A DNA stretch of 64,000 bases from Nitrospirota bacterium (GCA_963818475.1 CAWFSF010000006.1:416001-480000), one strand, 5' to 3'; counted from the first letter of the stretch, positions 9,947 through 40,876 are shown. A program made the numbers and translations. Notes: generated by a model not told the origin, from the letters alone.

Positions 9947-9980
9947 ATTTAACATTACCTGACTTGCACGAGGCTTATTT

Positions 9981-16915: not shown

Positions 16916-16967
16916 GCGAATAGAATATGTTCCCGAGGCAACCCAATGATCATGCGCACTCGCGCAG

Positions 16968-18137: not shown

Positions 18138-18198
18138 GACTTATACTATATACAAATTATCAGGTTTCGTCCAATGATTTTTCCCACACGTTTTTTAT

Positions 18199-18227
18199 TT
18201 GACAATAGCAGGCGATTCCTTTAATTT
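18199..18227 (+). promoter_or_regulatory. Putative sigma-70 promoter for the nonaheme cytochrome gene
   Basis: TTGACA-17 nt-TAATTT; the -10 match is weak. Confidence 0.35.
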
Positions 18228-18245
18228 GTAGCATTGCTCTTCTCT

Positions 18246-19067
18246 ATGAAGGTAAAAATTAAAAATAAAAAGCTCAAAATCGTCTTTTTTTTATGCCTCG
18301 CTTTCGCGGTATTTGCCATCCTGGCATTCGCCATTACCAGTGTTGTTTTCAAAAATCCCGACAACTGCATCAAATGTCACTACATGAGGCCTTTTTATGA
18401 CACCTGGAAGTCCTCGGCCCATGCGGGATCCGGCTGCCTTACCTGCCATGATTACGGACCTACGCGAATGATCGGAAATCAACTCAAGTATCTTGCCGGC
18501 ACGTATAACCCGAAACCCCGGACCATTGTGCCGAGGCTGGTTTGTATTGCCGAGGGGTGTCATGACGAGCGACTGGTGGATCCGGTCGTCAAATACTCGC
18601 GCAGGGGGATCTTTTTCAGCCATACTCACGCGACCGAGGTGAGGAGGGACATCATCAAACTTCGATGCCGCAGTTGCCACGTGAGTGTGGGCCATTCGAA
18701 AGGGAAAAGCGTCGCAAAGGAGGTCTGCTTTATCTGCCATTTTATCAATACGGGCGACCTCCAGAAGGCGGTGACGGGCTGTCCGTCGTGTCATCCCTCA
18801 CCGAAGGGGGATATCCTCCACGACGGCAAGAGGTTCTCCCACGAGGCGGCGCTCCGGAAAGGCCGTGTGTGCAGAGATTGCCATGTAAAAATCGTAAAGG
18901 GAAGAGGGGAAGTCCCCCGGGAACGCTGCCATCTTTGCCACGTAGACCGGTTTGACAAATACGGCGATAAAGCGCTGATCCATAAAAAACATGTGGAGGA
19001 CCTGCAGATATACTGTCTTTACTGTCATGAAAAAATCGAACATGGAAAGATAGAAGTCTCGCATTGA
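18246..19067 (+). CDS. Membrane-anchored nonaheme cytochrome c (NapC/NirT-like N-terminus)
   Basis: N-terminal TM, then CIKCH(YM), CLTCH, CIAEGCH, CRSCH, CFICH, CPSCH, CRDCH, CHLCH and CLYCH. Confidence 0.92.
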   Translation: MKVKIKNKKLKIVFFLCLAFAVFAILAFAITSVVFKNPDNCIKCHYMRPFYDTWKSSAHAGSGCLTCHDYGPTRMIGNQLKYLAGTYNPKPRTIVPRLVCIAEGCHDERLVDPVVKYSRRGIFFSHTHATEVRRDIIKLRCRSCHVSVGHSKGKSVAKEVCFICHFINTGDLQKAVTGCPSCHPSPKGDILHDGKRFSHEAALRKGRVCRDCHVKIVKGRGEVPRERCHLCHVDRFDKYGDKALIHKKHVEDLQIYCLYCHEKIEHGKIEVSH

Positions 19068-22961: not shown

Positions 22962-23001
22962 AGCATACTCGGGCAGAATGCCTCACTTTGAAAGGAGTAT
23001 T

Positions 23002-23838
23002 ATGTCTCCCGTAGAAACCGTCTTATTCTGGATATGTCTTCTTGCCTATGCATTGGCAACAGGCGGATATATCTATTCGTTTGTCTTCAAAAACGAAAAG
23101 GTCCTTCCCAAGCTGATGCTCCTGGTTACGGTTGGTTTTGTTCTCCATACCGCTACTATCGCTGCGCGATATTACGCCCAAGGGCATCTTCCCTGGAGCG
23201 GAGATTATGAAAACGGGCTCATGGGGGGCTGGTTCGTCATGGTATTGACGGTGTATGTCGTACGGCAGCAGAAACAACTCCAGGCACTGGCGGCGGTGAC
23301 TGTGCCTTTTACCCTGTTAATGATGGGCTTCGGCGTAATGCGGAACCCGACACTCGGGCCCATGGCGGCTTCTCTCAAGTCCTTCTGGCTGTTGATCCAC
23401 GTATATTTCGCCTGGCTGGCTTTCGGAGCGTTCGCGCTCGCCATGGCCGCCGGCATTCTTTATTTGCTCAAGGAAAAAGACGCTGCGCAGCCGGCACAAA
23501 ACCCGGTTTATGGTCGTTTTCCCTCTATCACCAGACTCGATGAATTGATGTTTCGCTACATAATCTTCGGGTTCATCACCGATGCTATCATGATCGCCGC
23601 GGGCGCCATCTGGGCCAAGGATTTGTGGGGAAGCTACTGGAGCTGGGACCCGGTCGAGACGTGGTCCCTGGTGTCATGGCTCATGTACGGCATCATCATC
23701 CATCTCCGCATGACCTTCGGGTGGCGGGGCCGAAGGCTTTCCTGGCTGACGATTTTCGCTATCGTCGGCATGATCATCACCTTTTTCGGCGTCAACTTCG
23801 TCGTCGAAAGCAGCTTCCACCTTTTTAACGTCAGATGA
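23002..23838 (+). CDS. resC: Cytochrome c synthase subunit ResC/CcsA (system II)
   Basis: WWD motif GAIWAKDLWGSYWSWDPVETW, plus conserved His residues in WLLIHV, IIIHLR and SFHLF. Confidence 0.95.
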   Translation: MSPVETVLFWICLLAYALATGGYIYSFVFKNEKVLPKLMLLVTVGFVLHTATIAARYYAQGHLPWSGDYENGLMGGWFVMVLTVYVVRQQKQLQALAAVTVPFTLLMMGFGVMRNPTLGPMAASLKSFWLLIHVYFAWLAFGAFALAMAAGILYLLKEKDAAQPAQNPVYGRFPSITRLDELMFRYIIFGFITDAIMIAAGAIWAKDLWGSYWSWDPVETWSLVSWLMYGIIIHLRMTFGWRGRRLSWLTIFAIVGMIITFFGVNFVVESSFHLFNVR

Positions 23839-25237
23839 TCCGCAAAGTCCTTTCCATAGCGTCATCACTGCGTTTTACGCTGATCTTGATCGTGGCGCTG
23901 TCGATCATATTCCTTCTCGGCCTATGGATACCCCAGAAGGGGTTGTTCACCCGTGAGGTTTACGTTCAATGGAAGACCAATTCTCCCGGGTCTCGTAACA
24001 GCGCTCGAAACCCTGGGGTTTACGGATATCTATACTGCCCCGATAACCATGGCCCTCTGGGTTCTTTTTTTCCTCAATCTCGTGTTTGGTCATGTTCAGA
24101 CGGCTGGATGTCGTCAAGGCTAAAATACGCCTCTCCGAGGACAAGCAGGAAGACCCGTCGACGAGTTCGCGATACCGGTACCGCAAGAGCATTCCTCTGT
24201 CAACGGAACTAGAACGCGATGCAGTCGCGCGAGCGCTTAAGCAGGAGGGGTATCGGGTTTTCGGACAGCCTGAGCGTTTTTACGCCGTAAAAAATCGTTT
24301 TTCGCCGGTTGCCACGATACTGTTCCATTTAAGTTTTCTTCTCATTCTTGCCGGAGGCATAGTTGGCCTCTATACACGTTTTTCCGCTTATCTCGATTTG
24401 GCTGCCGGAGAAGAGATCGACGGTTCCCTTGACCGGTTCACGAAACCTCTGACAATCCCTAAGATCGGCGCAATCCCGTCGGGAAGCTTCAAAGTCACGG
24501 ATATCCGTCCCGAGATGATTGGTGACACTCCGGCCGGTCTGCAAGTCGACATCCTCGATCCCGCCGGGAAGATCACGACTGCGGATATTAACAAACCATA
24601 CAAACCGGGAAAAGTGTCTTTCGTAGTCAAGGACCTCGGGGTGGCTCCGCTGGTAATTCTGCAGGACCGTTCGGGGAAGGAAGTGGACGGCGCCTATGTG
24701 AAGCTCAATGTGCTGCGCGGTAAGCAGGACCACTTCAAATTGCAGGGCGTCACCTTTACGGTCGATTTTTTCCCGGATTATGCTGTTCAGGACGGCATTG
24801 AAATATCACGTTCTGAAGAAGTTCGGAATCCTGCCTTCAGGTTTGCTTTGCAAGGGAGGGATTCCGTGCCCCTGCAGAGCACGATCCGTCCCGGTGAAGA
24901 GGCAGCGCTCGGCGCTTACCGGCTGAAGGTGCCCTCGGTACTGTACTGGGTCCGCTTCTACGTTGTGAAGGAGGAAGGGCTGGAATTGGTCTACGCAGGA
25001 TTCTTTCTCTCCGTTTTCGCGCTGATCTGGCGTTTTGGCTATTATCAGCGGGAACTCGTGGGCCGCAGGATAAACCAGGAAGGGAAAGAAGTTCTGCTCC
25101 TGGCCGGGCGGGCGGAGTTTTACCCCGCGCTTTACGAGGATGAATTCAATGAGCTGACGGAGAGGATAATGAAATTTTCCAACCGGGTGAACTCAGATAT
25201 GAAGCGGCCAAGTGCGGACAGCCGGGAGCCCTTGTGA
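23835..25237 (+). CDS. resB: Cytochrome c biogenesis protein ResB/Ccs1, with two apparent +1 frameshifts
   Basis: The N-terminus ASSLRFTLILI...GLWIPQ continues at 23992 in the +1 frame (LVTALETLGFTDIYTAP...FFLNLV) and again at 24086 (...ILFHLSFLLILAGG...GLELVYAGF). The extra bases lie in GGG 23988-90 and TTT 24085-87. Confidence 0.85.
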
Positions 25238-26100
25238 AAAGAAAAACTGTTAAAAGCGTAAGCAACTCAACTCAACTCAACTCAACTCAAGGAAGTCATC
25301 CCCTTCAAATCGCCCTCGTGTTCTTGCTGGTAATTGTCCTCTGTGCCGCTGCTTTTAAAAGAAATACGATTTGGCACGATAAAGTTCGTCTCTGGAACGA
25401 CGTGGTCGAGAAAAGCCCGTATATGGCAAGGGGATATATCAATCGCGCCAACGCCTTTAGAGAAGCCCGGCAGTATAGAGAGGCAATCGAGGATTGCGCT
25501 CGTGGGCTTGAACTTCATGAACTAAATCCCCGCCTCAATGAAGCGCACTTTACCTGCGGAATTATCTATTACGAGACCGGGGACTACGGAAACGCTATAC
25601 GGGAATACAGCCGGGAAATAGCTATAAATCCCGGTTTCGCAAGGGCTTATTTCAATCGGGGTAATATCTATTATCTGCAGGGAAATTATGATAGTGCGAT
25701 CCAGGATTACAGCGCGGAAATAGCGATAAATCCGGAGGATGCAAAATCTTACTTCAATCGAGCCAATGCCTTCAATACTATCGGCCTTCACGACAAGGCA
25801 ATCTCGGACTACACCAGAGAAATAACGGTCAATCCCCTGAATTCCGTGGCGTATTGCAATCGTGCGATAGCCTTGAGCGCAAAGGGGCATTATGATGCGG
25901 CGCTTGAAGATTTCAACAAGGCCATAGCTCTGAATCAGGGGAATGCCCAGCTCTTCTTCAGCCGGGGAAATGAATATCTCAGGCGGGCGCAATATGAACT
26001 GGCGATCGAGGATTATAACAAGGCAATCGAAATCAAGCCTGATTACAGGGATGCTGACATCAATAGGGGTATCGCATTGAGGAACATAAGAGGACGCTGA
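25234..26100 (+). CDS. Single-TM TPR protein matching the C-terminal module of TMTC-like transferases
   Basis: GTGA overlap with the resB stop. TM followed by KRNTIWHDKVRLWNDVVEKSPYMAR, then about 6 TPRs. Confidence 0.85.
   Translation: MKRKTVKSVSNSTQLNSTQGSHPLQIALVFLLVIVLCAAAFKRNTIWHDKVRLWNDVVEKSPYMARGYINRANAFREARQYREAIEDCARGLELHELNPRLNEAHFTCGIIYYETGDYGNAIREYSREIAINPGFARAYFNRGNIYYLQGNYDSAIQDYSAEIAINPEDAKSYFNRANAFNTIGLHDKAISDYTREITVNPLNSVAYCNRAIALSAKGHYDAALEDFNKAIALNQGNAQLFFSRGNEYLRRAQYELAIEDYNKAIEIKPDYRDADINRGIALRNIRGR
25263..25290 (+). repeat. Pentanucleotide microsatellite (CAACT)5CAA
   Basis: Directly visible at 25263-25290, about 30 nt into the TPR gene. Confidence 0.92.
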
Positions 26101-26400
26101 GAAAGCAAAAGCTGACGCTCCAAAAGCCTTATAAACTACTCATGGGAAAATAAATGGCAACAGTGACGACCTATCGATTACAGACCACACCGTAACTTAA
26201 AGCTGACCACTGGAAAGCGCGATTCTCCGATTTAGCACACGGCGCGCGATACCGAACAAATGCACTGATTACGGGATTGCTTCCCCGGGTAGCGGCTAAT
26301 TTAAAGAAAGAAGTGATATGAAATTTAGTCAGCAGTTGCCTTATTATCGAAACGTGTTTGTGCACCCTGCCCTCTCCAGTAAATATAGTAGAAAATGTTA

Positions 26401-26471
26401 TTGCATCAAGTATGAACAATGAGTATGATGGCCCTGAGGAGAAAAAATACTTCTTCCAGGGCCACAATTTT
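26401..26471 (+). promoter_or_regulatory. Sigma-70 promoter plus leader hairpin (copy 1)
   Basis: TTGCAT-17 nt-TATGAT, followed by the imperfect hairpin TGGCCCTGAGGAGAA...TTCTTCCAGGGCCA; homologous to 30101..30171. Confidence 0.6.
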
Positions 26472-26492
26472 TATGTTACCCGATATCCGTAA

Positions 26493-27332
26493 ATGTACCG
26501 TAAATTTATGAGCAAATTCTTAAACGTAACTCGCCGCTGGCACATCACGACTGCATTGGCTATTTCTGTGGTTATATTGCTGTCTTACACTGCATACAAG
26601 AGAAATTCCGCCTGGCAAAATGATCTAACGTTAATGACTGATATTACAAACAAATCTCCCCAGAAATCACGCGGATACATCTATCTTGGAAATTATCATT
26701 ATTTTACAGGTTCGTTTGATAATGCAATAATAAATTTTCAGACAGCTTTGCGACTCACCGGCAAGCAGCCGGACTTATTGCCCGGAATATATGTTAGTTT
26801 AGGCAATGCCTATGTCTCTACGGGGCAAATAGAGAAGGCAATCGAATATTATGTGAAAGCCGTAGAAATCAATCCCGATTATGATTCAGCATATGCCAAC
26901 CTCGGCAATGCGTATAGTTCTCAAGGGGCGCTGGATAAAGCAATAGATTATTATCAAATTGCACTGAGGCTTAATCCGAATTCCGCCAATGCTTATAATA
27001 ATATTGCTAATGCCTACTTCAAGAAAAACGAGCTAGATAAAGCCATTGAATATTATCGGCTGTCCTTAAGACTAAATCCCGATTCAGCTTATTTATACAA
27101 TAATATCGCCAGTGCTTATTTTGCAAAAGGACTGCCTAAAGAAGCAATTGAGAATTTTGATAAAGCCATAGAGTTAAAAAATGATATGGCGCTTTTTTAT
27201 GTTAACCGAGGCGACGCGCATCTTAAACTAGGGCAGAGAAGAGAAGCAATGTCAGACTATGGAGAGGCATGCGCATTAAGTGACGAACCGGGATGTAGAG
27301 AACTTCGGAAATTAGGATTTGCTCACGATTAA
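26493..27332 (+). CDS. Second single-TM TPR protein (TMTC C-terminal module), AT-rich
   Basis: TM followed by KRNSAWQNDLTLMTDITNKSPQKSR, then about 6 TPRs and an EACAL...C cap. Confidence 0.85.
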   Translation: MYRKFMSKFLNVTRRWHITTALAISVVILLSYTAYKRNSAWQNDLTLMTDITNKSPQKSRGYIYLGNYHYFTGSFDNAIINFQTALRLTGKQPDLLPGIYVSLGNAYVSTGQIEKAIEYYVKAVEINPDYDSAYANLGNAYSSQGALDKAIDYYQIALRLNPNSANAYNNIANAYFKKNELDKAIEYYRLSLRLNPDSAYLYNNIASAYFAKGLPKEAIENFDKAIELKNDMALFYVNRGDAHLKLGQRREAMSDYGEACALSDEPGCRELRKLGFAHD

Positions 27333-27379
27333 CTTGAACATATTATTATTCCATGACGTTTTTGGCCTAAATATATAAT

Positions 27380-27640
27380 CCGCACGTGAATCAGCCTTTT
27401 ACCGGGCGCTTTGATTATAGCCGGTAAAAAGACTGGACCAGGTTTTTCGTAATGCGCTCCCATTGCATAGCCTACGATTTCACCGTTGAAAAGATTGATA
27501 TCATTGTGACTCGCAAGATATAGCCACTCTTCATCGGTCGGTATATAGGATAATATTCACTCACCCAGACACAGTTGGACGTTGCTTCTCATTCCCCGTA
27601 TGTCGTTTGGACCAATTACTTCTTGATCCTTGACATCTTC
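27380..27640 (-). mobile_element. Degraded IS3-family transposase remnant
   Basis: The minus strand reads NCVWVSE / YIPTDEEWLYLASHNDINLFNGEIVGYAMG across frameshifts, matching the IS3 integrase core W..DITYI.T.EGWLYLA...D.F..EIVG.AM. Confidence 0.72.
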
Positions 27641-27841
27641 AGCCGGGACATAGCCGGCTAGAGGATCGCCTCCAGGGAATCGGCTGCAAAGGAACTCTGT
27701 CCTACGATGGGAGAGGGTAGGTGGTGGTTTGCCGCCTCATGCCAGGCGTACGTCGGCATGCAAATTTTTCTTTTGCATTTGTAAAAACGCAAACCCTCTT
27801 TTCGCAACTCTGCAAAAAAATAACAAAACTTTTTATCATTA

Positions 27842-27875
27842 ATTCAATAAGTTACGTTTTGGCATACGAGATGCA
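27842..27875 (+). promoter_or_regulatory. Putative sigma-54 promoter with IHF-like site
   Basis: TGGCATACGAGATGCA at 27860-27875 (GG-N10-GC). ATTCAATAAGTTA just upstream is one mismatch from the IHF consensus. TTTGC/GCAAA-rich sites lie at 27759-27820. Confidence 0.5.
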
Positions 27876-28120
27876 ATAATCCAGGCAAGACTGCACGTTC
27901 CATTCCCATGATTTGATTGAAAAATACTGCCAATGCTGTCCCAGCAAGACAGCCCTTGGCATGCCCCGCGTTACCTGATTGGTCTCCTTAGTCTCCAGTT
28001 TGAAAATAACACTGGAGCGTCGGCTTAATCTCGGCTGGATTGCGGCAGGCGCTTTTGATCGTCGGAGGAAACGCAGTGCGCCCATCTTATTACTCCCCCA
28101 TAACAATTCAAAAGAAAAGG

Positions 28121-28723
28121 ATGATCATTTTCAATATCCTTATCGTTGTTGTCTCTACTTCAATTTTAGTGTTTTTCTCTCTCTATGGAACGTCCCGGAG
28201 GGTGTTTTTACAAACGGGACTCATTCAGGTGTTGAAGGAACCGAAGGAATGCATATACGCATGGCGCAACGCCGGTGTTTCCGGGCGGGTCCTTTTCCAC
28301 ATTGACAGGCGACTGCGCGCCGAGTATGACCCCGATGATCCGATTCTGGACAATGACAACTATATGTATACCGCGAGGAGCGAGGCTGTTGTCAGAAAAA
28401 TTTACCATATCGTTCCCGAAGAATCTTGGACGGAAGTGGCGTCCAATCTCTCGAAACTCCCAAACGTGGCAGCTGCCGGCCCCGGTTTTCGATATTCGCT
28501 GGAGGGGACCCCGGTGTTCATTATGCGTGCAAAAGACATTGTCCCAATGAAGGAAAAGGTCCTCATCCATATCAACGGTGATTCCTGGGGAGGTGAGGGT
28601 ATTGAACAGATAATCGGGCTGCTTACTGATAACGTCCTCAGCGCAGACTTCATCACAATAACCGGGAAGATGGAAAATAGTCATGTGCAGTCGTTCAAAT
28701 CGTCGATGAATGAGTATCTTTAA
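28121..28723 (+). CDS. Paralog of 20890..21630 (probable degenerate arginase/UPF0489-like fold)
   Basis: TM, GVSGRVLFHIDRRL, VVRKIYHIVP, KVLIHINGDSW and LSADFITI. Start uncertain (28040 or 28121). Confidence 0.5.
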   Translation: MIIFNILIVVVSTSILVFFSLYGTSRRVFLQTGLIQVLKEPKECIYAWRNAGVSGRVLFHIDRRLRAEYDPDDPILDNDNYMYTARSEAVVRKIYHIVPEESWTEVASNLSKLPNVAAAGPGFRYSLEGTPVFIMRAKDIVPMKEKVLIHINGDSWGGEGIEQIIGLLTDNVLSADFITITGKMENSHVQSFKSSMNEYL

Positions 28724-29958
28724 TAGACAAGTTGTGATCGTGGCGCTCCTGACCGTCCTCGCGCTGGGATTACGGTTGTGGGGAATTTCCGACATGGAGG
28801 CCCACACCGGCGACGAGGCGGGGCAGGTGTCTTCAGCAAAGCATTTCATCCGGACCGGCCATACTGATTCTACTTTTTGGCACCACCCTCCTTTTGGTCT
28901 CATTCTCATCGCTGCCAGCATCGAGGTTTTCGGAGACAACCCCGCGGGCTGGCGCCTGCGAAACGCCGTGTTGGGCGGCATGACCCCGCTGTTGTTGTTT
29001 CTGATCGCCGCGGAATTATTTGCCTCGCAACGCGTTGCGTTCATGGCAGGCTTGCTTCTGGCGCTCGACCCCCTCCATATTTTTCTGTCTCGTTCGACCA
29101 TGGACGAGATTCCTGCTGTTTTTTTCTTTCTCCTGGCCCTCCTTGTCGACGTGAAATACCTGAAGGGAAAGATCGAGACGCCGCTTGCGTCAGGGCTCTT
29201 TCTCGGTCTTTCTCTTGCTTCGAAGCAATACTACGCTCTCGCAATATTACCTCTTTTTATTTTCAATCTGGTACTCCCGGCGAAGGGTGAGAAGGCGGGC
29301 TGGTATAAGACCATGCACGTCACGCTGGTGTTTCTCCTGCTGCCGCTGGTCGTTTTTACGGCATGCTACTTCCCGTGGTTTGCCGGAGGGCACGGGCTTC
29401 GCGATTTTTATCGCTTCCAACTTGATGCATATTATGATCTGCAAAGCATGACGTATAACTGGTTTGCGCTGGGAGAACTATTGCGGGAAACAGGTGCGCC
29501 ATGGGAATGGTTCGTGCGGCCGAAATATACCATGCTCTTCGGGGCCGGCTGGGGCCAATGGGGCTGCTATCTCTGCCTGACTAATAATCCGGTCATATGG
29601 CTCTTGACGCTGCCGGCATTGTTCTTCATGACCCTTCGATACAGAAAGGAAAAAGACCGCTGGCTTTTGATGACAGTCGTTCTTTTCCTGGCTGTTTATG
29701 TGCCGTTACTGTTGGCAAAAAGGCCGATTTTTCTGTACTCTGCGACCGCAGTCCTTCCCTTTGCCTTCCTGGCGGTCGCATATCTGGTGACTTCGCTGGC
29801 GCAAAAGGCCAGGATGCATGAATTAGCATATTCTATTTGCCACCGCGTGCGTTATTGCGATAGGTTTATACCATTATCCGTTGGCGACGGCGAAGCCCGT
29901 GCCGGCCGTTCTTTACACCCCCATTCTGACCGAAGAGGTGGCGACGCGGAATCTTTAG
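28710..29958 (+). CDS. PMT-like protein O-glycosyltransferase (GT39-like), with an apparent +1 frameshift near 29831
   Basis: GDE, HHPPFG, GWRL, LSR, ASKQ, PWEWF, NNPVIW and RPIFLY. The final TM (LFATACVIAIGLYHYPLA...) lies in the +1 frame ending at TAG 29958. Confidence 0.8.
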
Positions 29959-30059
29959 CGCGTTGCCGTCTCAAACCCTTCCCCACCACGTAAAGATATT
30001 ATTCTCTCCGCGGCTTTACCAAATGCAAGTATGCCGGAGTTTATGGCGGTAACTATGAT

Positions 30060-30100
30060 CTTATTTCCTGCTCTCTCAAATAAATAAAGCAGGAAATAAG
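30060..30100. terminator. Perfect 13-bp inverted repeat between convergent genes (terminator or operator)
   Basis: CTTATTTCCTGCT (30060-72) / AGCAGGAAATAAG (30088-100) with a 15-nt loop. Confidence 0.5.
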
Positions 30101-30171
30101 TTGCATCGGGTCCGAAGAATAGATATGATGGCCCTCAGAAGAAAAAATACTTCTTTCAGCGCCACAATTTT
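30101..30171 (+). promoter_or_regulatory. Second copy of the promoter + hairpin element
   Basis: Ungapped similarity to 26401..26471 at offset 3700, with TTGCAT-17-TATGAT retained. Confidence 0.55.
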
Positions 30172-31474
30172 AGCGGGAGTTTTCCATAATAAAGTCGAGA
30201 TCGCTCTTGTCCATCAGCAGCTGCGGTTTCACGGGGATATGTGTCTTTTCGTCGACGCCCGACGCCATGCCGATGGCCAGGATGATAGCTTCCGACTGGC
30301 CCGGACGCAGAATTCTCGGCCCCCATTCCAGAAAAATGACCCTGTTGCTGATGCTCGCCAGCGGGACTTTTTCAGATTCCTGCGCGAACCGTCCTATGCT
30401 GTTGGAAAAGTAGACGGTATCGGGCCTGACCTCACCCAGCCATTCGATGAAATTTGCCATACCCGAGAACGTTTTCGATTTCCCTGACGGTATCATCTTA
30501 TTCCCATAGTCATACTGCCCGGCGTACGAGTATTTCGCGGCGTCTACCATTCCTTCATAGTAGAAGAGCCTGTCTTTTACCCACCCCACATTTCCTTCAG
30601 AGGAGCCGAAATTACCGACCCACGGTTCGTCTCCGTAAATATAGAAATAGGGCACGTCATAGCTGTTCCTGTTTTTTAAAACGATCATCAGAATAAAATA
30701 GGCATCATCGGTTCTGAAAACGGCGTACCGGTCCATATGCAGGGGAACCCCCTGGAATTCGACCTTGTGGCTGCTTTTCAGGATCAGCTTTGATTTGCTT
30801 TTATTCAGGATCTTGCTGCCAAGAAATTCCCAATGGGAAGGAGTCAGCATGTGGTCCGGATCAAATCCGATGCCAAGCGCTTCGTTTGCATTGCACCAGA
30901 GATGCTGCCATTCCTTCCCGTTAAAAAAAGCCATCCCGGTTTCGTTTTTTGTGACGTTGGGATCTTCCAGCTTTGCTCCCGGCAATCCGCCTCCGACAAA
31001 AATTCCTTTAGGAGCGACGCCGTTGCCGCTGTCCTTGAACCGGCTGAAACAGGTGATGAGTCTTTTATTGTCTGGAAAATGAGACTCGACATATCCTCTT
31101 CCGGTTCGTTCGCTCCATCGGTAATGGATTTGGGACTCTTCAGTCGCATTGGTATCAACGCCCATCAAGTGCAAAAGAGGGATCAACCCAGGAATGCTTT
31201 TGCGCTTGATTAAGAAATCGAAAACTGGCTGGAAATCCACTCGGAAAATAATTTTATGCTCGTCTCCCAAAAAATCCTCATTCTGAAGATCGAAGACCGC
31301 GCCGTGGCTGCATCTCAGGAGATATATTCCCTCATAATCTCCTGAAAAGTCGAAGTGAGTTATGGAGATGAAGACCGTGAGCGGCAGTATGAGGATTGCA
31401 AGAAAGAGTATAGGGAGGCGGTTACTTGGAACAAGGAAGGAAAGTCTTCTGAGTTGATTTTTAACAGTATTCAT
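30170..31474 (-). CDS. Hypothetical protein with an N-terminal TM and an aromatic-rich soluble domain
   Basis: 434-aa ORF; no motif recognised. Confidence 0.7.
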   Translation of the reverse strand: MNTVKNQLRRLSFLVPSNRLPILFLAILILPLTVFISITHFDFSGDYEGIYLLRCSHGAVFDLQNEDFLGDEHKIIFRVDFQPVFDFLIKRKSIPGLIPLLHLMGVDTNATEESQIHYRWSERTGRGYVESHFPDNKRLITCFSRFKDSGNGVAPKGIFVGGGLPGAKLEDPNVTKNETGMAFFNGKEWQHLWCNANEALGIGFDPDHMLTPSHWEFLGSKILNKSKSKLILKSSHKVEFQGVPLHMDRYAVFRTDDAYFILMIVLKNRNSYDVPYFYIYGDEPWVGNFGSSEGNVGWVKDRLFYYEGMVDAAKYSYAGQYDYGNKMIPSGKSKTFSGMANFIEWLGEVRPDTVYFSNSIGRFAQESEKVPLASISNRVIFLEWGPRILRPGQSEAIILAIGMASGVDEKTHIPVKPQLLMDKSDLDFIMENSR

Positions 31475-31547
31475 GTGAGTGGAATAATTTATTAATGAGG
31501 AAAGGCCTCAGGCCGATAAGGTAAAATCACCATCAACAAAAAGCGTC

Positions 31548-31670
31548 TTTCGCATAGCAGCCAAGGACGGAAAGGAAATGCGTCAATACCGGTTTTAAAC
31601 CCAAAGGATATATCTTTCCTTGCGATCTTTGCGTCTCAGAGAGGGACGCTTAAAGGGCCATTGCGAGAAA
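31548..31670. repeat. Possible degenerate REP-like palindromic element
   Basis: TTTCGCA...CCAAGGACGGAAAG ... CTTGCGATCTTTGCGTC...TTGCGAGAAA with imperfect dyad symmetry. Confidence 0.3.
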
Positions 31671-32042
31671 TTCGCTGGTTTTTTGGTTCAACTCAAAAAC
31701 TTGACTCAAAATTCAGGATGAGACGAACTAAAGTTACCTTTACAGCGTGCGAAATAATACAATACTTTACTGTCAATTGCCAGAACTATTTTGACCCCTC
31801 ATGATTCCGTTCAGAGGACCTTTTGCTATGAATCCGCGCTGCGATTCCGCTGAAAACCTAAGAAAACGAAAGCCCGAAAGAGGCGCCAGAGCGGAATGGG
31901 GATATTCCGCAGTCCAGCCCGCCCGTTAAAAGTCCCTTGATAATTGACGCAAAATGGTTATAATATACCGTGTTGCATCGTGCTGATCTGCCGCTTACGC
32001 ATCCTGCGAGGCTCTCGGCACGGGAATGGTAAGAGGATAGCA

Positions 32043-32489
32043 TTGCGCTATTATTTCAGGGACCGCATCCGTTCGCTCTTTCAGTTGAATGACACCCCGC
32101 ATCGGCTTGCCCTGGCATTCGCTCTCGGCGTGTTTATCGCCTTTTCGCCCACAGTCGGACTGCATTTAATTTCGTGCGTTGTTATCGCCTGGGCATTCCG
32201 GCTGAGCAAGGTCGTGGTGTTCACCGCTTCTCTCATCAACAATCCCTGGACCATCGTGCCGATGTACGGATTTTGCATCTGGTTCGGCAGCAAGCTCATG
32301 GGGCGCGAGATCGCCATGCCGCAGATCGCGTGGAATGAGCTTACCCTGTCCAGTGCCTATGTGGTCATTAAGCCGTACTTCTGGCCTTTTGTTGCGGGAA
32401 CGCTGGTGGCAGGAGGCATTGCCGCTGTCATGGCATACTTTTTAATCTATTGGCTGGTGATCCGCTACAGAAAAGTGGAAGGCAAATAA
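32043..32489 (+). CDS. DUF2062-family membrane protein
   Basis: DTPHRLALAFALGVFIAFSPTVGLH...INNPWTIVP...G; TTG start after AGAGGA. Confidence 0.82.
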   Translation: MRYYFRDRIRSLFQLNDTPHRLALAFALGVFIAFSPTVGLHLISCVVIAWAFRLSKVVVFTASLINNPWTIVPMYGFCIWFGSKLMGREIAMPQIAWNELTLSSAYVVIKPYFWPFVAGTLVAGGIAAVMAYFLIYWLVIRYRKVEGK

Positions 32490-32628
32490 AGCGTTACGGC
32501 AACCTTTGGCTTGGAGCAAAAGACGTATATATTGACTGGATGAATTATATTGATTATGATATGCGTCACTATCCCGATACATTCACGAAGAGCTATCAGC
32601 CTAAGCAGTATCGGATAACAATCTCAGG

Positions 32629-32933
32629 ATGAATGGTGAGAACAGTCCTTTGGCATCCCCCTCGTATCGGTAGTCATCGTGAATTGGAACGGCAGGCATC
32701 TCCTGGAGGAATGTTTGGATTCACTCCAGGCACAGACCTGCCGGGATTTTGAGATAGTTCTTGTTGATAACGGTTCGCAGGATGGTTCCTCTGGGTTTGC
32801 GCGGGAACAATATCCCGGCGTCAAGCTGATCCAGCTGGGAGAGAACCGCGGTTTTTCCGGCGAGAACAACACCGGCAAGCGGGAAAGCTGGTGGCGAATA
32901 AGATTCTCATTCCCCACCCCACCGTGTGAATAG
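32629..32933 (+). pseudogene. Truncated GT2 glycosyltransferase fragment
   Basis: PLVSVVIVNWNG...LEECLDSL...IVLVDNGSQDGS...ENRGFSGENNTG, then similarity is lost and a stop follows; no in-frame ATG upstream. Confidence 0.7.
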
Positions 32934-33015
32934 AACGGCTCTGGTAATAGATCAATAGCAATCTTCGACTGAGCAGCACTGAGCAGCCTTGACTGTTCAC
33001 CGGGAATGGATTATC

Positions 33016-34032
33016 ATGGCCTCCATGTCAACTGAACCGGTCAGCATCGTAATCCCCATGTACAATGCTGAAAAATATATTGCGCAGGTCCTTGACGCTA
33101 TTTTTCAGCAGGAGTATCCCGGCGAACGGGAAGTGATCGTGGTGAATGACGGCAGCCGCGACCGTTCTTTGGAGATCGTGCAAGAGTATGCCTGGCAGCG
33201 GACAGGGATCACGGTCATTGATCAAGCCAATCTGGGTGCCGTGACGGCAACCAATAACGGTTTTAAGGCAGCGCGATACAATACTATCTGCAGTGTTGAT
33301 TCTGACGTAGTATTACACCCGGACTGGCTCGATAAGATTATGGCCGAGTTCGCCGATCCTCGCGTGGGAGCCGTGCAGGGATATTATAAAACCCCGGAGG
33401 GAATATCATTCTGGGCGCGGATGATGGGGTATGACGTGGAGAAGCGGTACGACGACATCAAGGAGAAATACGTATCCCAGGTCTGTACCGGCAATACAGC
33501 CTACCGGAAGTCGGCGCTTGAGCAGGTCGGGCTTTTTGATCCTGCGTTCATTTACGGATATGACAACGATATGAGTTATCGGCTTCAAAAAGCCGGATAT
33601 ACACTCGTTTTCCGCAAAGACGCACTTTGCGATCATTACTGGAAGGCGGACCTTTCAAGCTATATAAAACAGCAATATCGCTCCGCATACGGCAGAATGC
33701 AACTCGTTCAGCGGCACAGGGACCGGGCAGGCGGCGATAGCGTGTCCGGTCTGCGCATGATCCTGCAGGTCCCGCTCACGGTCCTGTCGATCGGGTTGGC
33801 CGGAACCGGGGTCTTCCTCAGCATGTTCGGATGGCCGGGCACACTCCTGCTCAATTCCGCTGCTCTTATCTTCGCCGGGCTCATGGCTGACCGGCTGGCC
33901 TTTGCGTACAGCATCATGCGGAAGCAGCATGATGCGCGTGTTCTGCTCCTGCCATTCGTTCACATACTGAGAAATGGCGTCTGGTGCGTTGCGCTGGTGC
34001 GATGGATGCTGGGGACCCTATGGACAAGATAG
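33016..34032 (+). CDS. GT2 glycosyltransferase with C-terminal TMs
   Basis: VSIVIPMYN, VNDGSRD, VDSD and QQYRSAYG. Confidence 0.88.
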   Translation: MASMSTEPVSIVIPMYNAEKYIAQVLDAIFQQEYPGEREVIVVNDGSRDRSLEIVQEYAWQRTGITVIDQANLGAVTATNNGFKAARYNTICSVDSDVVLHPDWLDKIMAEFADPRVGAVQGYYKTPEGISFWARMMGYDVEKRYDDIKEKYVSQVCTGNTAYRKSALEQVGLFDPAFIYGYDNDMSYRLQKAGYTLVFRKDALCDHYWKADLSSYIKQQYRSAYGRMQLVQRHRDRAGGDSVSGLRMILQVPLTVLSIGLAGTGVFLSMFGWPGTLLLNSAALIFAGLMADRLAFAYSIMRKQHDARVLLLPFVHILRNGVWCVALVRWMLGTLWTR

Positions 34033-34739
34033 CAAAGGCGAAAAAATTCGAACAGGAGCTGGTGCATGGCAAGGGGCTCATCCCAACTCCGTCATCCTGG
34101 ATCGATTATTTTTGGGAAGCACACCGCAATAAGGTCGTGGCTTCGCTGAGCGAACCCTTTCAGCAGGCATCGACGGTATTGTTCATTGGCGTCGGAACCG
34201 GCGATGTGATCCCAAGATTGCGCCCTGTTGGCAAGAGGATCATCGGCATCGATCTGAACAAAACCTGTCTTGCGCAGGCTGCTCAATACTGTGAGGCTGT
34301 TGAGGGGGACGGATCAACCCTTCCTCTTGACGATGAAAGCTGCGACCTGGTCGTGTGCAATATGGTCCTCCACCATATCGTGGAGCAGGGTGGCCTGGAA
34401 AAGACCCTGAGTGAAGCCGCTCGCGTTCTGAGGCCGGGCGGCCGGTTCATGGCCTATGAACCGAACATCTATCATCCTTCAGGAATGGCGTTGACTCTCC
34501 TCAATACCTTTCACCTCTACCATGCGGTAGGGGGGGGGAGCAATTACGAACGAGCGCTATCTCCCTTTTCTCTGGTCAGAGCGTGCCGGCCTTATTTCCA
34601 AAAGGTCCGGGTCCGCACGCTTACATTCGGGCACCCCCGGTTTCCCCTGTTTATGCAAAATACGCTTTTCAGGCTTGATACACCGTGCGCGGCGTTATAC
34701 CCGTTCAGCTTTAGTTTTGCCATCGAAGCAGTCAAATAA
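34020..34739 (+). CDS. Class I SAM-dependent methyltransferase
   Basis: LFIGVGTG, GIDLN, LPLDDESCDLV and RVLRPGG. Confidence 0.85.
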   Translation: MDKIAKAKKFEQELVHGKGLIPTPSSWIDYFWEAHRNKVVASLSEPFQQASTVLFIGVGTGDVIPRLRPVGKRIIGIDLNKTCLAQAAQYCEAVEGDGSTLPLDDESCDLVVCNMVLHHIVEQGGLEKTLSEAARVLRPGGRFMAYEPNIYHPSGMALTLLNTFHLYHAVGGGSNYERALSPFSLVRACRPYFQKVRVRTLTFGHPRFPLFMQNTLFRLDTPCAALYPFSFSFAIEAVK

Positions 34740-34826
34740 TTCTGAAGTACGATGGCGCGCGTGACCGGAAAGGTCTGGATCGCGTAATTCCGCGGTGAAC
34801 CGTTAAGTCGGTTGTGAGGACCCTGC

Positions 34827-36278
34827 ATGAAAATTGGTCTTATCGTCCCCCCTGCAATTTCGCAGGACAGAATCCCTGAACGGGTTTACGGCTGCACGTT
34901 TACGTACTACAAACAGCCCCAGCTTCCGCTCCTGTATGTCGGAGCTGTTCTCGAGAGGGAAGGCCATCAGGTCGTGTTCAGGGACTTCACCGGCAGGAAT
35001 GCTTGGGATGCGTTTGTCAGCTTTGTCGATGCCGCACCCTGCGATCTCTATGTTTTCCATACCGTCCTGCTGGCGGAAAGCGTTGACCTCCGGGCGGCAC
35101 GGCATGTCCTGGAGCATACCGCAGCGAAAATCATTTTCTTCGGCCCCCAGCCGACGCTGAAGCCGCGGAACTTCCTGACGAGCGACCGGTGCTATGTGGC
35201 ACGTGGTGAGGCTGAATTCATAATCCGTGACCTGGCTCGGGCTTTGGAGCACGGTGGTCTTGAGACCGTAAAAGGCATATCCTATCTCAGAACAAGCCAG
35301 ATGGTCGAGGCCGAAAGCTATGGAGTCATCGAGGACCTGGACAGCCTTCCTTTCCCGGCTCGCCATCTGATCGAACGCGGGAAGGATGATTTTTTCAATC
35401 CAAAGCTGCCCTACCGGCCCGTGACGCTGGTCCTGACCTCGCGGGGCTGCAGGTTCCGCTGCTACTATTGCGTGCCCAATGCAATCAGCTGGGCACGCGA
35501 GCTGGAATGGAAGCGGTTTCATCCCGGCACCAAGCCGCCAGTGACGCTCCGGTCTCCCGGGAACATCGCCGCCGAGTTCACGGCCATAAAAGCCCAGGGA
35601 TATCAGGCCGTGTCCATCCTCGATGATATGTTTCTTTTTGGCGGCAAGGAAAGGATTCTGGAGATATGTCGTGGATTAGAACGAGTTCAGCTACCCTTCG
35701 GAGGACTTTCTCGCTGTGAATTTGTGCTCGATGATGAAGTGGGTCAGGCACTGGCACGGGCTGGCTGTAAGTATATCGATCTGGGGATCGAGTCGCTCAA
35801 TCAAAATGTGCTCAATGATATTAAAAAGGACCTGGATATTTCGAAGGTCCGGCAGGCCATCGACCTGCTGAACAAGTATGGGATCGAGCCAAAAGCCAAT
35901 ATCATGTTCGGAGCCTCGCCGCTGGAAACGAAAGACACAATCCGTTCCACGGTTGAGACGATCTCAGCATATCCACTCAATTACTGCATGTTCCTGATTG
36001 CAACCCCATTTCCCGGGACGGAGTTCGATAAGCAAGCAAGGCAGAACGGGTGGGCAATTGAACCAGACATAAATGATCTGGAGAACAATCTTTCGCCTAC
36101 GAACAAGTCACTCGTGGAATACCCACATCTGGGCAAAGGAGACCTGGAACATGCGGTAAAGAAAGCAAATCGGCGATTTTATCTCAGTCCCAGGAGGATT
36201 TGGTTCCAGCTGAGCAAGGTCAGTTCCTGGAAGGCGTTGAAGGATTTGATGGTGACCGGCTGGAAGATCATAAAGTAG
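34827..36278 (+). CDS. B12-binding radical SAM protein
   Basis: ARGEAE, TSRGCRFRCYYC, LGIES and TPFPGT. Confidence 0.9.
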   Translation: MKIGLIVPPAISQDRIPERVYGCTFTYYKQPQLPLLYVGAVLEREGHQVVFRDFTGRNAWDAFVSFVDAAPCDLYVFHTVLLAESVDLRAARHVLEHTAAKIIFFGPQPTLKPRNFLTSDRCYVARGEAEFIIRDLARALEHGGLETVKGISYLRTSQMVEAESYGVIEDLDSLPFPARHLIERGKDDFFNPKLPYRPVTLVLTSRGCRFRCYYCVPNAISWARELEWKRFHPGTKPPVTLRSPGNIAAEFTAIKAQGYQAVSILDDMFLFGGKERILEICRGLERVQLPFGGLSRCEFVLDDEVGQALARAGCKYIDLGIESLNQNVLNDIKKDLDISKVRQAIDLLNKYGIEPKANIMFGASPLETKDTIRSTVETISAYPLNYCMFLIATPFPGTEFDKQARQNGWAIEPDINDLENNLSPTNKSLVEYPHLGKGDLEHAVKKANRRFYLSPRRIWFQLSKVSSWKALKDLMVTGWKIIK

Positions 36279-36319
36279 AAGCGATCTGCGCAGACTGTCG
36301 TGGCTACCTATTCTAATCA

Positions 36320-37015
36320 ATGAAGATCCTGATTATCATACCGGCATACAATGAAGAAAAGAGCCTTCCCGGAGTTATCTCTGAACTGAGGAAAGAGGCT
36401 CCGGAGGCGGACGTGCTTGTCGTGAACGATGGGTCCCACGATAAGACGGTGCATATTGCGCGAGAAATGAGTGCTCAGGTTCTAGACCTGCCGTTCAACC
36501 TCGGGATCGGTGGAGCGATGCAGGCCGGGTACCTCTATGCACAGCGTCGGGGCTACGACATCGCAGTTCAGTTTGATGGCGATGGCCAGCATCTTGCCCA
36601 TGAGATAAAAAAATTGCTGCAGCCCGTGCTGGACGGGAAGGCTGATATTCTTATCGGTTCCCGGTTTCTGGGGCAGGGAGATTACAAACCCTCGTTCTCC
36701 AGAAAAATCGGAATCAAGGTCTTTTCCACTGTGTTATCATGCATCCTCGGAACGCGATTAACGGATACGACATCAGGTTTTCGCGCCGCCAACCGGCGGG
36801 TGATCGAGTTCTATGCCCGCACCTATCCCGACGATTATCCAGAAGTGGAGGCGCTGGTGCTTCTGCACAAGGCCGGGATGCGGATCGCGGAGGTTCCGGT
36901 CCACATGCGTGAGCGCACCAGCGGTCAGTCCTCCATAACAGCGGTGCGTTCGGTGTATTACATGGTAAAAGTGCTCCTGGCGGTCTTGATCGACCTGCTT
37001 AAAAAAACGAGGTGA
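36320..37015 (+). CDS. DPM1-like polyprenol-phosphate glycosyltransferase (GT2)
   Basis: IIIPAYNEE, NDGSHD, NLGIGGA, FDGDGQH, GSRF and DTTSGFR. Confidence 0.9.
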   Translation: MKILIIIPAYNEEKSLPGVISELRKEAPEADVLVVNDGSHDKTVHIAREMSAQVLDLPFNLGIGGAMQAGYLYAQRRGYDIAVQFDGDGQHLAHEIKKLLQPVLDGKADILIGSRFLGQGDYKPSFSRKIGIKVFSTVLSCILGTRLTDTTSGFRAANRRVIEFYARTYPDDYPEVEALVLLHKAGMRIAEVPVHMRERTSGQSSITAVRSVYYMVKVLLAVLIDLLKKTR

Positions 37016-37019
37016 ATCC

Positions 37020-37376
37020 ATGGATATCTTGGGCATATTGGCGATAGTCGGAAACGGGACGATCCTGCTGCTGGTCATAGAACTGATCCGCAGAGGACGA
37101 TTAAAAGAACGGTATTCTCTTGTCTGGCTCTTTGCCTGCGTTTCTCTGCTGATCCTCTCTCTGTCCAGGGAAACGCTTGAGTTCTTTTCGCATCTCGTCG
37201 GGATTTATTATGCCCCGTCCTTCCTGTTTCTTGTTGCCTTCCTGTTTCTGCTGATGATCACCCTTCACTTTTCCGTGGTCATATCGGGTCTGTCTGAAAA
37301 AAACAAAAAGCTTGCTCAGGAACTTTCATTGCTGAGGAACGAGATGGAGGGACGGGCAGCCCGGAAATCAGAGTAG
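37020..37376 (+). CDS. DUF2304-family membrane protein (GacJ-like partner of a polyprenol-P sugar synthase)
   Basis: IRRGRLKERYSLVW...VGIYYAPS...SEKNKKLAQELS, immediately after a DPM1-like GT2. Confidence 0.85.
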   Translation: MDILGILAIVGNGTILLLVIELIRRGRLKERYSLVWLFACVSLLILSLSRETLEFFSHLVGIYYAPSFLFLVAFLFLLMITLHFSVVISGLSEKNKKLAQELSLLRNEMEGRAARKSE

Positions 37377-37515
37377 ATGTACCGCAGGCTAGAGCGGGGT
37401 CCTGAATCGAATAAAACCAATACGAAATCAAAAGAATATACTTTACATGCCCCAATTTCCATGCTAAGTTTCACCACACTATCGAATAGCGACTGGTTTC
37501 AGGGAGGATTTTTCT

Positions 37516-38715
37516 ATGGGCTTCGTACAGACGATGAAGGATAAAATGGAAAGGTTCTATAGCAGCCCGCGGTTCAATGGCGCGGCGTTCATTCTCATTG
37601 CTGCGATGGTGCTTATTGCCTATTCCAATACGTTCACCGCCGCGTTTCATTTTGATGACAACCCGTCCATTGCTGAAAACCCAGTGATCAAGCACGTGAC
37701 CATGGAAAATATCACTCAGATCATTATGGGAATTCGGCCGGTCGTTTACCTGAGTCTGATGCTCAACTATCAGCTCGGCGCTCTGAATGTCGTGGGTTAC
37801 CACATATTCAATATTGCCGTTCATGTCATAAACAGCATGTTCGTCTATACGCTCATGCTCTGGACCTTTGGGATGCCCCTCCTCAGCGCCGCGTATCAGG
37901 CAAAGGCAAAAAGAATGGCATTATTCGGCGCGCTCCTGTTTGCCGTGCATCCGATCCAGACAGAGTCGGTAACGTATATTATAACCCGGACGGAGCTGCT
38001 TGCGACGTGCTTCTATCTTGCCACCTTCCTTCTATTCATCAAAGGGGTAAAAACCAAGAAGTTCGGTTACACTATCGGTGCCTTTTTTACCGCCCTCCTT
38101 GCCATGGGGTCCAAGGAATGGGCGGTAACGCTGCCGGCACTGCTCTTTGTCTATGATTTTCTGTTCCTGTCGGAAGGGAAGTTGAAGCCGATAGTGTCCC
38201 GCTGGCTAACGTATGTGATGGTAACGATTCCGTGCGCCACTGTTTTCCGCAACCTGAATCTGTTTTCGAGCAGCTCTGCCTCAGGCATCGGATTTAATTT
38301 GTCCACCACGAGTGGCATCAATGCACAGACGTACCTGCTCACCTCTTTTAATGTAATCTGGACGTATATCCGGTTGATGTTCCTGCCGATCAACCAGAAC
38401 CTCGACTACGACTATCCTATTGCAAAGACTTTGTTTGAATTCCCGACGATCATTTCTTTCATCGGACATCTGATCGTGGTGGGCGGCGCATTCTGGCTTT
38501 ATGTGAAAAAGAGATGGCTGTTGATTCCCTTTGGTGTGGCCTGGTTCTACATCGGCATCTCCCCGGTCCAGAGCGTCGTGCCGATCGTCGATGTTATTTT
38601 CGAGCACCGCATGTATATGCCGTCAATCGGCGTTTTCATCGTATTTGTTACAGCGTATGAGGGCTTGTTTGACCTCTGGACGGAAAAGAAAAGCGGTGCA
38701 GCGAAGATGCGTTAA
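37516..38715 (+). CDS. TMTC-like GT-C glycosyltransferase lacking the last TM and the TPR domain
   Basis: FHFDD, RP, YHIFNIAVH, HPIQTESVTYIITRTELL, SKE, NLDYDY and EHRMYMPS; the ORF stops shortly after that TM. Confidence 0.82.
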   Translation: MGFVQTMKDKMERFYSSPRFNGAAFILIAAMVLIAYSNTFTAAFHFDDNPSIAENPVIKHVTMENITQIIMGIRPVVYLSLMLNYQLGALNVVGYHIFNIAVHVINSMFVYTLMLWTFGMPLLSAAYQAKAKRMALFGALLFAVHPIQTESVTYIITRTELLATCFYLATFLLFIKGVKTKKFGYTIGAFFTALLAMGSKEWAVTLPALLFVYDFLFLSEGKLKPIVSRWLTYVMVTIPCATVFRNLNLFSSSSASGIGFNLSTTSGINAQTYLLTSFNVIWTYIRLMFLPINQNLDYDYPIAKTLFEFPTIISFIGHLIVVGGAFWLYVKKRWLLIPFGVAWFYIGISPVQSVVPIVDVIFEHRMYMPSIGVFIVFVTAYEGLFDLWTEKKSGAAKMR

Positions 38716-38739
38716 AGCATGAGGTCGCCAGTCCGGGGG

Positions 38740-40173: not shown

Positions 40174-40195
40174 CGTAATTTGTCCCTTCGCGTAC

Positions 40196-40876
40196 TCAGT
40201 TTGAGAACCGGTATCTCAGCAGCGCCCAGAGGGCGGAGAAGCCGTCGGTCCAGCGTATTTTTTTTCCTTCACGGTAGGTTCTGCCGTAATAGGATATCGG
40301 CATCTCGTAAATTCGGTATTTGTTTTTGCAGAATTTCGCCGTCAGTTCCACTTCGATCTCGAATCGTTTCGAGCGTAAGGTCATGTCCTTCAAGACACTG
40401 CTTCTGAATACCTTATAGCAGCTTTCCATATCTGACAGCGTCGAGTTGTAAAGAATGTTCGCAAAGAGCGTGAGCATCTTATTGCCGACCAGATGCCAGA
40501 ACATATACACCCGCTGCGGTTTTCCCCCGGAAAGCCGCGATCCGTATACCACATCGGCCATACCCCTGAGGATCGGTTCGGCCAGGGCTTGTATCTCCTG
40601 AGGGTCGTATTCCGTATCAGCGTCCTGGACTGCCACGATGTCACCGGTTACGAGTTCGAACCCCTTTCGCAGGGCAGTTCCTTTTCCGCCGTTTTTGGTA
40701 AGGAACGCCTTTTTGAGGCCGACGATATCCAAACGCTCAAGGACATCTTTTGTCCCGTCGGTGGAGCCATCGTCCACTACGATGATCTCTTTGTCGAACC
40801 CAAGCGAGTGGACCTTTCGTATGATCGTTTCGATCGTATTCTTTTCGTTATAAACGGGAATAACAATTGAAATCAT
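40196..40876 (-). CDS. DPM1-like polyprenol-phosphate glycosyltransferase (GT2)
   Basis: VIPVYNE, DDGSTDGT, GKGTA, QDADTEYDP, GSR and EGKKI. Confidence 0.9.
   Translation of the reverse strand: MISIVIPVYNEKNTIETIIRKVHSLGFDKEIIVVDDGSTDGTKDVLERLDIVGLKKAFLTKNGGKGTALRKGFELVTGDIVAVQDADTEYDPQEIQALAEPILRGMADVVYGSRLSGGKPQRVYMFWHLVGNKMLTLFANILYNSTLSDMESCYKVFRSSVLKDMTLRSKRFEIEVELTAKFCKNKYRIYEMPISYYGRTYREGKKIRWTDGFSALWALLRYRFSN

Follow-up and report, generated by a model that had tools for sequence, protein, structure and literature searches.

Fission of a TMTC-like GT-C glycosyltransferase gene in a Nitrospirota bacterium, and stand-alone TPR modules as its possible second subunit

Even in animals, TMTC-type enzymes are poorly understood, and next to nothing has been described of their relatives in bacteria. 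A 64,000-nucleotide stretch of a Nitrospirota genome (genome G000, contig C6, 416001-480000; hereafter the window, meaning the whole stretch analysed) encodes three TMTC-like GT-C proteins, recognized from translations and alignment, one of which lacks the tetratricopeptide repeats (TPRs) of the other two, and it also encodes two small proteins made of the part that this one lacks. Does the locus hold the separated parts of a two-subunit glycosyltransferase, and is the TPR part exchangeable, as an original prediction made from the DNA alone had proposed? The five genes concerned, with transmembrane helices numbered TM1 to TM11, are:

37516..38715, plus strand: P0001, putative TPR-less TMTC-like GT-C catalytic core, TM1-TM10 with a cytoplasmic end, 399 amino acids (aa)
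25234..26100, plus strand: P0002, stand-alone module of TM11, KRNxxW linker and TPRs (Pfam TPR_1, E = 2.5e-43)
26493..27332, plus strand: P0003, stand-alone module of TM11, KRNxxW linker and TPRs (Pfam TPR_1, E = 3.3e-48)
14504..16915, plus strand: P0004, full-length paralogue with GT-C part, TM11, RRNxxW, TPRs and an octahaem cytochrome c domain, 803 aa
19078..20733, plus strand: P0005, full-length paralogue with GT-C part, TM11, RRNxxW and TPRs, 551 aa

P0001 aligns with the GT-C part of P0004 and P0005 and ends 11 residues past the helix that starts with EHRMYMPS, at the position that had been predicted. Past this break point the two paralogues add one TM helix, the segment RRNxxWRSxETLYRQMIxDxPDS and then TPRs. 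P0002 and P0003 begin with a short basic stretch followed by a single hydrophobic helix, the linker (KRNTIWHD.../KRNSAWQN...KSP) and the TPRs, and their BLASTP matches to P0005 run from its residue 355/356, in its last TM helix, onward; that these open reading frames (ORFs) open with the segment following the break was therefore correctly foreseen. Alignments and ORF reading likewise bore out the proposal of complementary break points in three intact genes. When the seven GT-C paralogues encoded in the genome were all used as tblastn queries, neither a decayed core 5' of P0002 or P0003, the finding that the original prediction had named as fatal to it, nor decayed TPR sequence 3' of P0001 was detected. 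P0002 starts at a GTG that shares a GTGA overlap with the stop codon of an upstream resB-like gene and is preceded by a GGGAG site, whereas no ribosome-binding site is evident for P0003, whose GC content is low (0.39).

The survey of the break point took in 78 related loci of public genomes and the paralogues within G000 itself; once L022, L023 and L051, which held only fragments or a frameshifted gene, had been dropped, it covered 92 GT-C ORFs. The length distribution was sharply bimodal: 25 of the 92 ORFs stop 0-18 residues after TM10, 67 run at least 109 residues beyond it with TM11, RNxxW and TPRs, and none is of intermediate length. The best 120 database matches to P0001, with 63-85% identity, are nearly all of about 400 aa, so that its orthologues are not invariably full length, and by this comparison the short core is a conserved form in its own right and no recent truncation. 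The idea that the convergent radical-SAM gene downstream, or a mobile element, had simply truncated P0001 was rejected, as this neighbour is a normal radical SAM gene of the B12-binding type and the short core is conserved.

A stand-alone TM-RNxxW-TPR gene was found in 9 of 24 short-core loci and in 4 of 51 loci with fused enzymes only, three of the latter being orthologous to each other. The recurrence across genomes that had been proposed as a check was thus found for the short cores, with a module directly adjacent (at most 21 nt away) in 5/24 loci (L017, L020, L033, L061 and L077). An in-frame stop causes the split in L061, which could be recent or erroneous, and in L017, L020, L033 and L077 the module genes lie within the operon of the core. 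L020, the one case with a module upstream of the core, reads GT2-DUF2304-module-core, with 20 nt of overlap, and a frameshift in a fused gene cannot give such an order. Four modules follow a single short core in L077 and three do so in L028. A maximum likelihood tree built from 91 rows of core sequence (quick IQ-TREE search, with SH-aLRT as the only support measure; L016, a contig-end fragment, was kept out) requires five state changes, of which well-supported branches force four or more, and places a second short clade (L077/L033/L028) far from that of P0001. On this tree the short state arose more than once, and sequence comparison as a whole argues that fission of the GT-C-TPR gene is real, old and recurrent.

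Stand-alone modules were sought with a 60-column profile of the TM helix and linker. Its 17 sites in G000 comprise 12 in open frames of 141-315 aa and five in fused enzymes; P0002 and P0003 are modules of this kind, as predicted, but the genome holds 12 of them, not two, for one short core. The R-N-aromatic motif is retained in all 12, five of which have RNxx(Y/F) instead of RNxxW. In G003, a member of the same genus, there were 34 matches: 26 in frames of 134-352 aa, six in fused enzymes and two others, in a frame of 416 aa and in a stop-containing frame of 103 aa. This congener combines a large expansion of stand-alone modules with a P0001 orthologue in pieces (C8:455293-456463). Among 31 genomes, modules were present in 14, and 13 of these hold a P0001 orthologue, intact in 11 and broken in G003 and G014; indel errors may account for these breaks, since both assemblies consist of few contigs. 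An orthologue was not found in the remaining module-bearing genome, G002, which is 90% complete and in 490 contigs. No modules were detected in the nine genomes with fused enzymes only or in the eight without any match.

G015, a 100% complete genome, holds a single short core and a single module and lacks fused forms. The module there belongs to an RNxxY...HENYGQAL type, whose orthologues were found in G002 as well as in all 13 core-holding genomes, at 44-83% identity (35% in the incomplete G004). The G000 representative (G000:C6:89233-90045, with a 75% identical copy on contig C2) is the likeliest candidate, on these comparisons, for the standing partner of the core. P0002 and P0003, the two modules named in the original prediction, are plausible partners of P0001 as fast-diverging, lineage-specific modules. 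The conserved module lies at 5234-6046 of L119 (G000:C6:84000-96000), flanked by an MtrC-like gene for a multihaem cytochrome (3411-4397, minus strand) on one side and a metallophosphoesterase gene on the other; a PocR-GAF-GGDEF gene comes next, and a GAF-like gene likewise follows the module in G015. Elsewhere on the contig, four stand-alone modules lie within 4.7 kb (G000:C6:380195-384847; L116 4196-8848), three of them in tandem, just upstream of a gene for a 1246-aa CARDB/sortilin/BACON protein that is either a possible acceptor or an unrelated neighbour. The idea that two genomes had been binned as one, which would explain the 4.66 Mb size and the duplicate module copies, is unlikely at 6.2% contamination.

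Against 1.84 billion representative proteins the profile gave 18,863 matches at E <= 0.001 and 5,174 at E <= 1e-10. The best 150 of the 18,863 comprised 42 without a detectable core (72-422 aa), 54 with a whole core and 54 with a partial core, the last group being most likely gene fragments. The possibility that 24 'intermediate' matches carried another membrane domain fused to the module was discarded, as Pfam showed TPRs only and a core-profile search identified them as fragments of fused enzymes.

The AlphaFold2 model of P0001 (pLDDT 85.2, pTM 0.88) has ten TM helices, of which TM7 and TM8 are joined by a long outer loop, and its C-terminus is cytoplasmic. Human TMTCs are proposed to have eleven TM helices (PMC7801869), and those of P0001 correspond to the first ten. 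The best structural match by VIA-align was STT3 (Z 18.8, rmsd 4.8 over 310 aa), with Pmt4 (Z 17.3, rmsd 4.2 over 300 aa), Pmt1/2 (Z 16.8), ArnT (Z 16.1) and PglB (Z 16.0) behind it, and the top 49 entries were GT-C enzymes plus the GPI-transamidase subunit PIG-U. A Foldseek search of the PDB returned nothing at E <= 0.001 (best E 3.7e-3), and no solved structure similar to the core in sequence was found. To judge by the model, P0001 belongs to the GT-C superfamily (GT-C_A fold). The first outer loop, which follows TM1, carries an acidic motif (H45-F46-D47-D48) that does not vary in 57 sequences, and the same DD pair aligns in P0004 and P0005. Also invariant in these 57 sequences is LLFAVHPIQTE, including H145 and P146, which by eye resembles the motif LLFAVHPIHT given for human TMTC3 in PMC7801869. 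Eleven TM helices and TPRs in one chain, the layout expected of a TMTC, are present in P0004 and P0005 and not in P0001; the Pfam model of the TMTC TM7-TM8 loop, DUF1736, had no match at E <= 0.01 in any of the three. P0001 also fell short of PMT / GT39 membership, with 20.1 bits against a cut-off of 26.1 for PMT_2 and no MIR match.

The core is the third gene of an operon that opens with:

36320..37015, plus strand: GT2 glycosyltransferase, GacI/Dpm1-like (Pfam Glycos_transf_2, E = 8.4e-23)
37020..37376, plus strand: DUF2304 small membrane protein, GacJ-like (Pfam DUF2304, E = 6.8e-24)

By analogy, the GT2 is presumed to be a polyprenyl-phosphate-sugar synthase and the DUF2304 protein its activator subunit. 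A GT2 orthologue adjoins the short core in related loci, and the GT2-DUF2304 pair accompanies it in 19 of 23 short-core loci, as against three of 61 fused ORFs, all three in L069. Adjacent genes for GT2, DUF2304 and GT-C, the make-up of a three-component system, are thus present at the P0001 locus, and a general scan of ORFs, in which no search was aimed at flippases, turned up none of GtrA or Wzx type. In Streptococcus pyogenes, GacJ (DUF2304) binds and activates the GT2 GacI, which makes GlcNAc-P-undecaprenol, and the GT-C GacL uses this donor and acts on polysaccharide (bioRxiv 10.1101/180810). By the same analogy, the donor here would be a polyprenyl-phosphate sugar from the core's own operon.

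The multimer model of core and TPR module that had been suggested as a check was run for P0001 and P0003, from our own alignments of 57 and 49 rows, respectively. It reached an ipSAE of 0.87 in three runs, against 0.00 for the best of three controls; a mark of 0.87 is reached by 116 of 157 solved complexes and by two of 215 mismatched pairs, a calibration that is rough here given the use of our own alignments. At least 91% of contacts agreed between runs, and partner pLDDT was at least 87. The interface involves residues 12-64 of P0003 (TM helix and linker, with R37, N38 and W41) and, in P0001, TM1 with the start of the first loop (31-46), residues 137-154, the PINQNLDYDY loop (291-299) and TM10 (381-389), positions that are largely the invariant columns of both alignments. 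Because no solved structure resembles the core by sequence, the result is no memory of a solved complex.

Taking these results together, we lean slightly towards a GT-C enzyme of two subunits, which receives its TM11-linker-TPR part in trans and may do so from alternative modules. P0001 would be the catalytic TM1-TM10 core of a TMTC-like GT-C split by gene fission, using a polyprenyl-phosphate sugar made by the upstream GacI-like GT2 with the GacJ-like DUF2304 protein. Small type-II membrane proteins, the modules, would contribute in trans the eleventh helix, the RNxxW linker and a periplasmic TPR domain; the module helix would pack on TM1, TM3 and TM10 of the core, the R-N-aromatic linker would lie on conserved periplasmic loops beside the catalytic DD motif, and the TPR solenoid would present the acceptor. 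The standing partner would most likely be the module at G000:C6:89233-90045, and other modules may redirect the enzyme to other acceptors. That 12 plug-in TPR specificity subunits (about 26 in the congener) take turns in completing the one core is possible but doubtful; were it so, multihaem cytochromes may be among the acceptors in this genome neighbourhood. The tandem module runs of L077 and L028 and the 12 modules for one core fit such swappable adaptors, although twelve modules per core fit independent function equally well. The two-subunit enzyme of the original prediction gains from the complementary breaks, the conservation of the short core, the recurrence of the split and the model of P0001 with P0003, while exchange itself, like binding, module-dependent catalysis and the nature of donor and acceptor, is what we infer.

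Several further observations weigh against a two-subunit enzyme. P0001 lies 10-12 kb from P0002 and P0003, in a separate operon, and none of the 15 closest core loci, which make up its subclade, has an adjacent module (the nearest are two in L012 at 2-4 kb on the other strand and one in L011 at 7.4 kb). Modules also adjoin complete fused enzymes, in L014, L017, L044/L047/L064 and L063, which counts against this reading because such enzymes should need none. All 14 module-bearing genomes come from one family, so the co-occurrence counts are not independent events, and the GT2-DUF2304 neighbours common to both short clades speak against fully independent origins of the short state. P0002 and P0003 have no match above 37% identity in 30 relatives, congeners included, and their closest relatives are the C-terminal halves of fused enzymes of 681 and 699 aa. 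Complex modelling covered the pair P0001 and P0003, one module of the 12; the model indicates that P0003 keeps a docking surface, which does not establish binding in a cell, and it may only replay intramolecular packing learnt from the many fused homologues.

Some of this evidence can be read differently. P0001 could be the self-sufficient GT-C of a three-component periplasmic system that modifies a glycan or lipid without any TPR protein, the TM-TPR proteins being independent scaffolds descended from fused enzymes. The GT2-DUF2304 company of the short core (19/23 loci, 3/61 for fused ORFs), the action of the GT-C on polysaccharide in the known GacIJL system (bioRxiv 10.1101/180810), the confident folding of P0001 alone (pLDDT 85.2) and the lack of adjacent modules in its subclade would all suit this explanation. 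We nevertheless judge it unlikely, in view of the module genes in the same operon in L017, L020, L033 and L077, the sharing of genomes by core and module, the R-N-aromatic motif kept in all 12 stand-alone G000 modules and the contrast between 0.87 and 0.00 in the complex model. Without orthologues and nearest to the C-terminal halves of fused enzymes, P0002 and P0003 could instead be recent leftovers, that is, truncated remnants of GT-C-TPR genes whose cores were lost, with no function alongside P0001. A word-based search gave no homologue of the P0003 N-terminus (residues 1-80), and the atypical GC content and missing ribosome-binding signal of this gene point the same way, as does the presence in another genome, G011, of a fused enzyme in the position after resB-ccsA. 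Yet each of the two intact ORFs encodes well-formed TPRs and the whole docking segment, no core remnant precedes either, P0002 has its GGGAG site and GTGA overlap with resB, and P0003 docks on P0001 in the model, so that we consider the remnant explanation quite improbable.

A very improbable explanation, in our estimate, is that P0002 serves as a TPR apocytochrome chaperone of the CcmI/NrfG kind for the upstream ResB/CcsA (System II) paralogue, with no glycosyltransferase involved. It draws on the overlap between the P0002 start and the resB stop, on the wealth of multihaem cytochromes tied to TMTC-like genes in the window and on weak matches to CcmH/NrfG TPR models, which come from P0003 and not from P0002. 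These matches remain below the family cut-offs (P0003 scored 44.5 bits against 306 for NrfG and 41.6 against 42 for TPR_CcmH_CycH; none was listed for P0002), P0002 keeps the GT-C docking motif, and neither the state of the adjacent resB nor its surroundings in other genomes favours such a role. The genes in question are:

22978..23838, plus strand: ccsA/resC-like cytochrome c assembly gene, upstream of resB and P0002 (Pfam Cytochrom_C_asm, E = 5.2e-41)
23835..25237, plus strand: resB-like gene in three frames (Pfam ResB on the 3' ORF)
18234..19067, plus strand: separate octahaem cytochrome c gene, directly upstream of P0005, with the haem-motif spacing of the C-terminal domain of P0004

The resB-like gene changes frame twice, near 23985 and near 24085, the latter at a run of seven T, and the intact 493-aa ResB of G011 matches it by tblastn successively in frames 1, 2 and 3. 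Either the gene is a pseudogene or two indel errors have entered the few-contig assembly; a search of sequencing runs listed two DNA runs, with a 0.05 share of the words, and no RNA run. With a best relative of 35% identity, this resB is a divergent paralogue. None of 24 other ResB-like loci had a module within flanks of about 1.5 kb, and for this reason a conserved resB-module operon was dropped. With resB frame-changed and 0/24 such loci carrying a module, the original proposal that one module is tied to resCB and hence possibly specific for cytochromes is weak.

It is plausible on other grounds, independent of P0002, that TMTC-like enzymes and cytochromes are linked in this lineage, given the fused genes beside resB-ccsA in G011 and the octahaem fusion in P0004. 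In G011 (L113, G011:C41:135500-155400), an intact resB (9483-10964) and ccsA (10961-11800) precede three fused GT-C-TPR genes (11778-13835, 13968-15944 and 16932-18911), the first of which overlaps ccsA. The C-terminal domain of P0004 contains eight CxxCH motifs, with a spacing identical to that of the eight haem motifs of the 18234-19067 cytochrome. P0004 and the 18234-20733 gene pair thus form a fusion/fission pair that ties TMTC-like enzymes to a cytochrome.

Compared with known systems, the proteins of the window share with the eukaryotic O-mannosyltransferases TMTC1-4 the GT-C fold, a cytoplasmic N-terminus and an acidic pair in the first outer loop, and the full-length paralogues also share TM11 followed by outer-side TPRs. 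They differ in that the enzyme is here cut between TM10 and TM11 into two genes, in the lack of a Pfam DUF1736 match, in their bacterial origin and in the operon with GT2 and DUF2304. GacI-GacJ-GacL of S. pyogenes and PpgS-Rv3632 of M. tuberculosis similarly bring together a GT2 synthase, a DUF2304 activator and a GT-C, but their GT-C is not TMTC-like, has no TPR partner and targets polysaccharides. Fused bacterial GT-C-TPR proteins have a homologous core, the same TM11, the same RNxxW...KSP linker and TPRs, in a single polypeptide that is mostly not encoded beside GT2-DUF2304. In the oligosaccharyltransferase of yeast, the GT-C catalytic subunit works with the exchangeable membrane-anchored subunits Ost3p and Ost6p, which set the substrate range; these are thioredoxin-like, not TPR proteins, supply no helix of the catalytic bundle and are two alternatives, as opposed to 12 or more here. 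A literature search, with most subscription journals outside its reach, found no published description of split or bacterial TMTC-like enzymes.

A natural split that parts the catalytic bundle from TM11 and the TPRs offers an experimental separation of catalysis and acceptor recognition. If the modules of a two-subunit enzyme are indeed exchanged, each would bring a structural helix near the active site together with a different acceptor-binding solenoid, the module expressed would decide which periplasmic proteins are glycosylated, and a GT-C could gain new targets by duplicating a gene for 200-300 aa and not the whole enzyme. Since stand-alone modules are widespread, many annotated 'TPR repeat proteins' may then be glycosyltransferase subunits.

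The operon of the core belongs to a dense envelope-glycosylation island (32989-44729) with three GT2 genes, a methyltransferase gene, three B12-binding radical SAM genes (34827-36278, 38740-40173 and 43323-44729) and a gene for an 885-aa YfhO-like GT-C (40873-43530). The stretch 26001-28040, which holds P0003 and two ORF-poor gaps (26101-26492 and 27333-28039), has a GC content of 0.39-0.45 against about 0.52 around it and may be acquired DNA. Two PMT/PMT_2-type GT-C genes (21617-22843 and 28710-29993) are each preceded by a gene for a membrane-anchored protein of unknown family, of 246 and 227 aa, within 20890-22843 and 28040-29993, respectively. These two proteins are weakly related (21% identity, E = 1e-07), which makes the pairs a second duplicated two-gene glycosylation unit.

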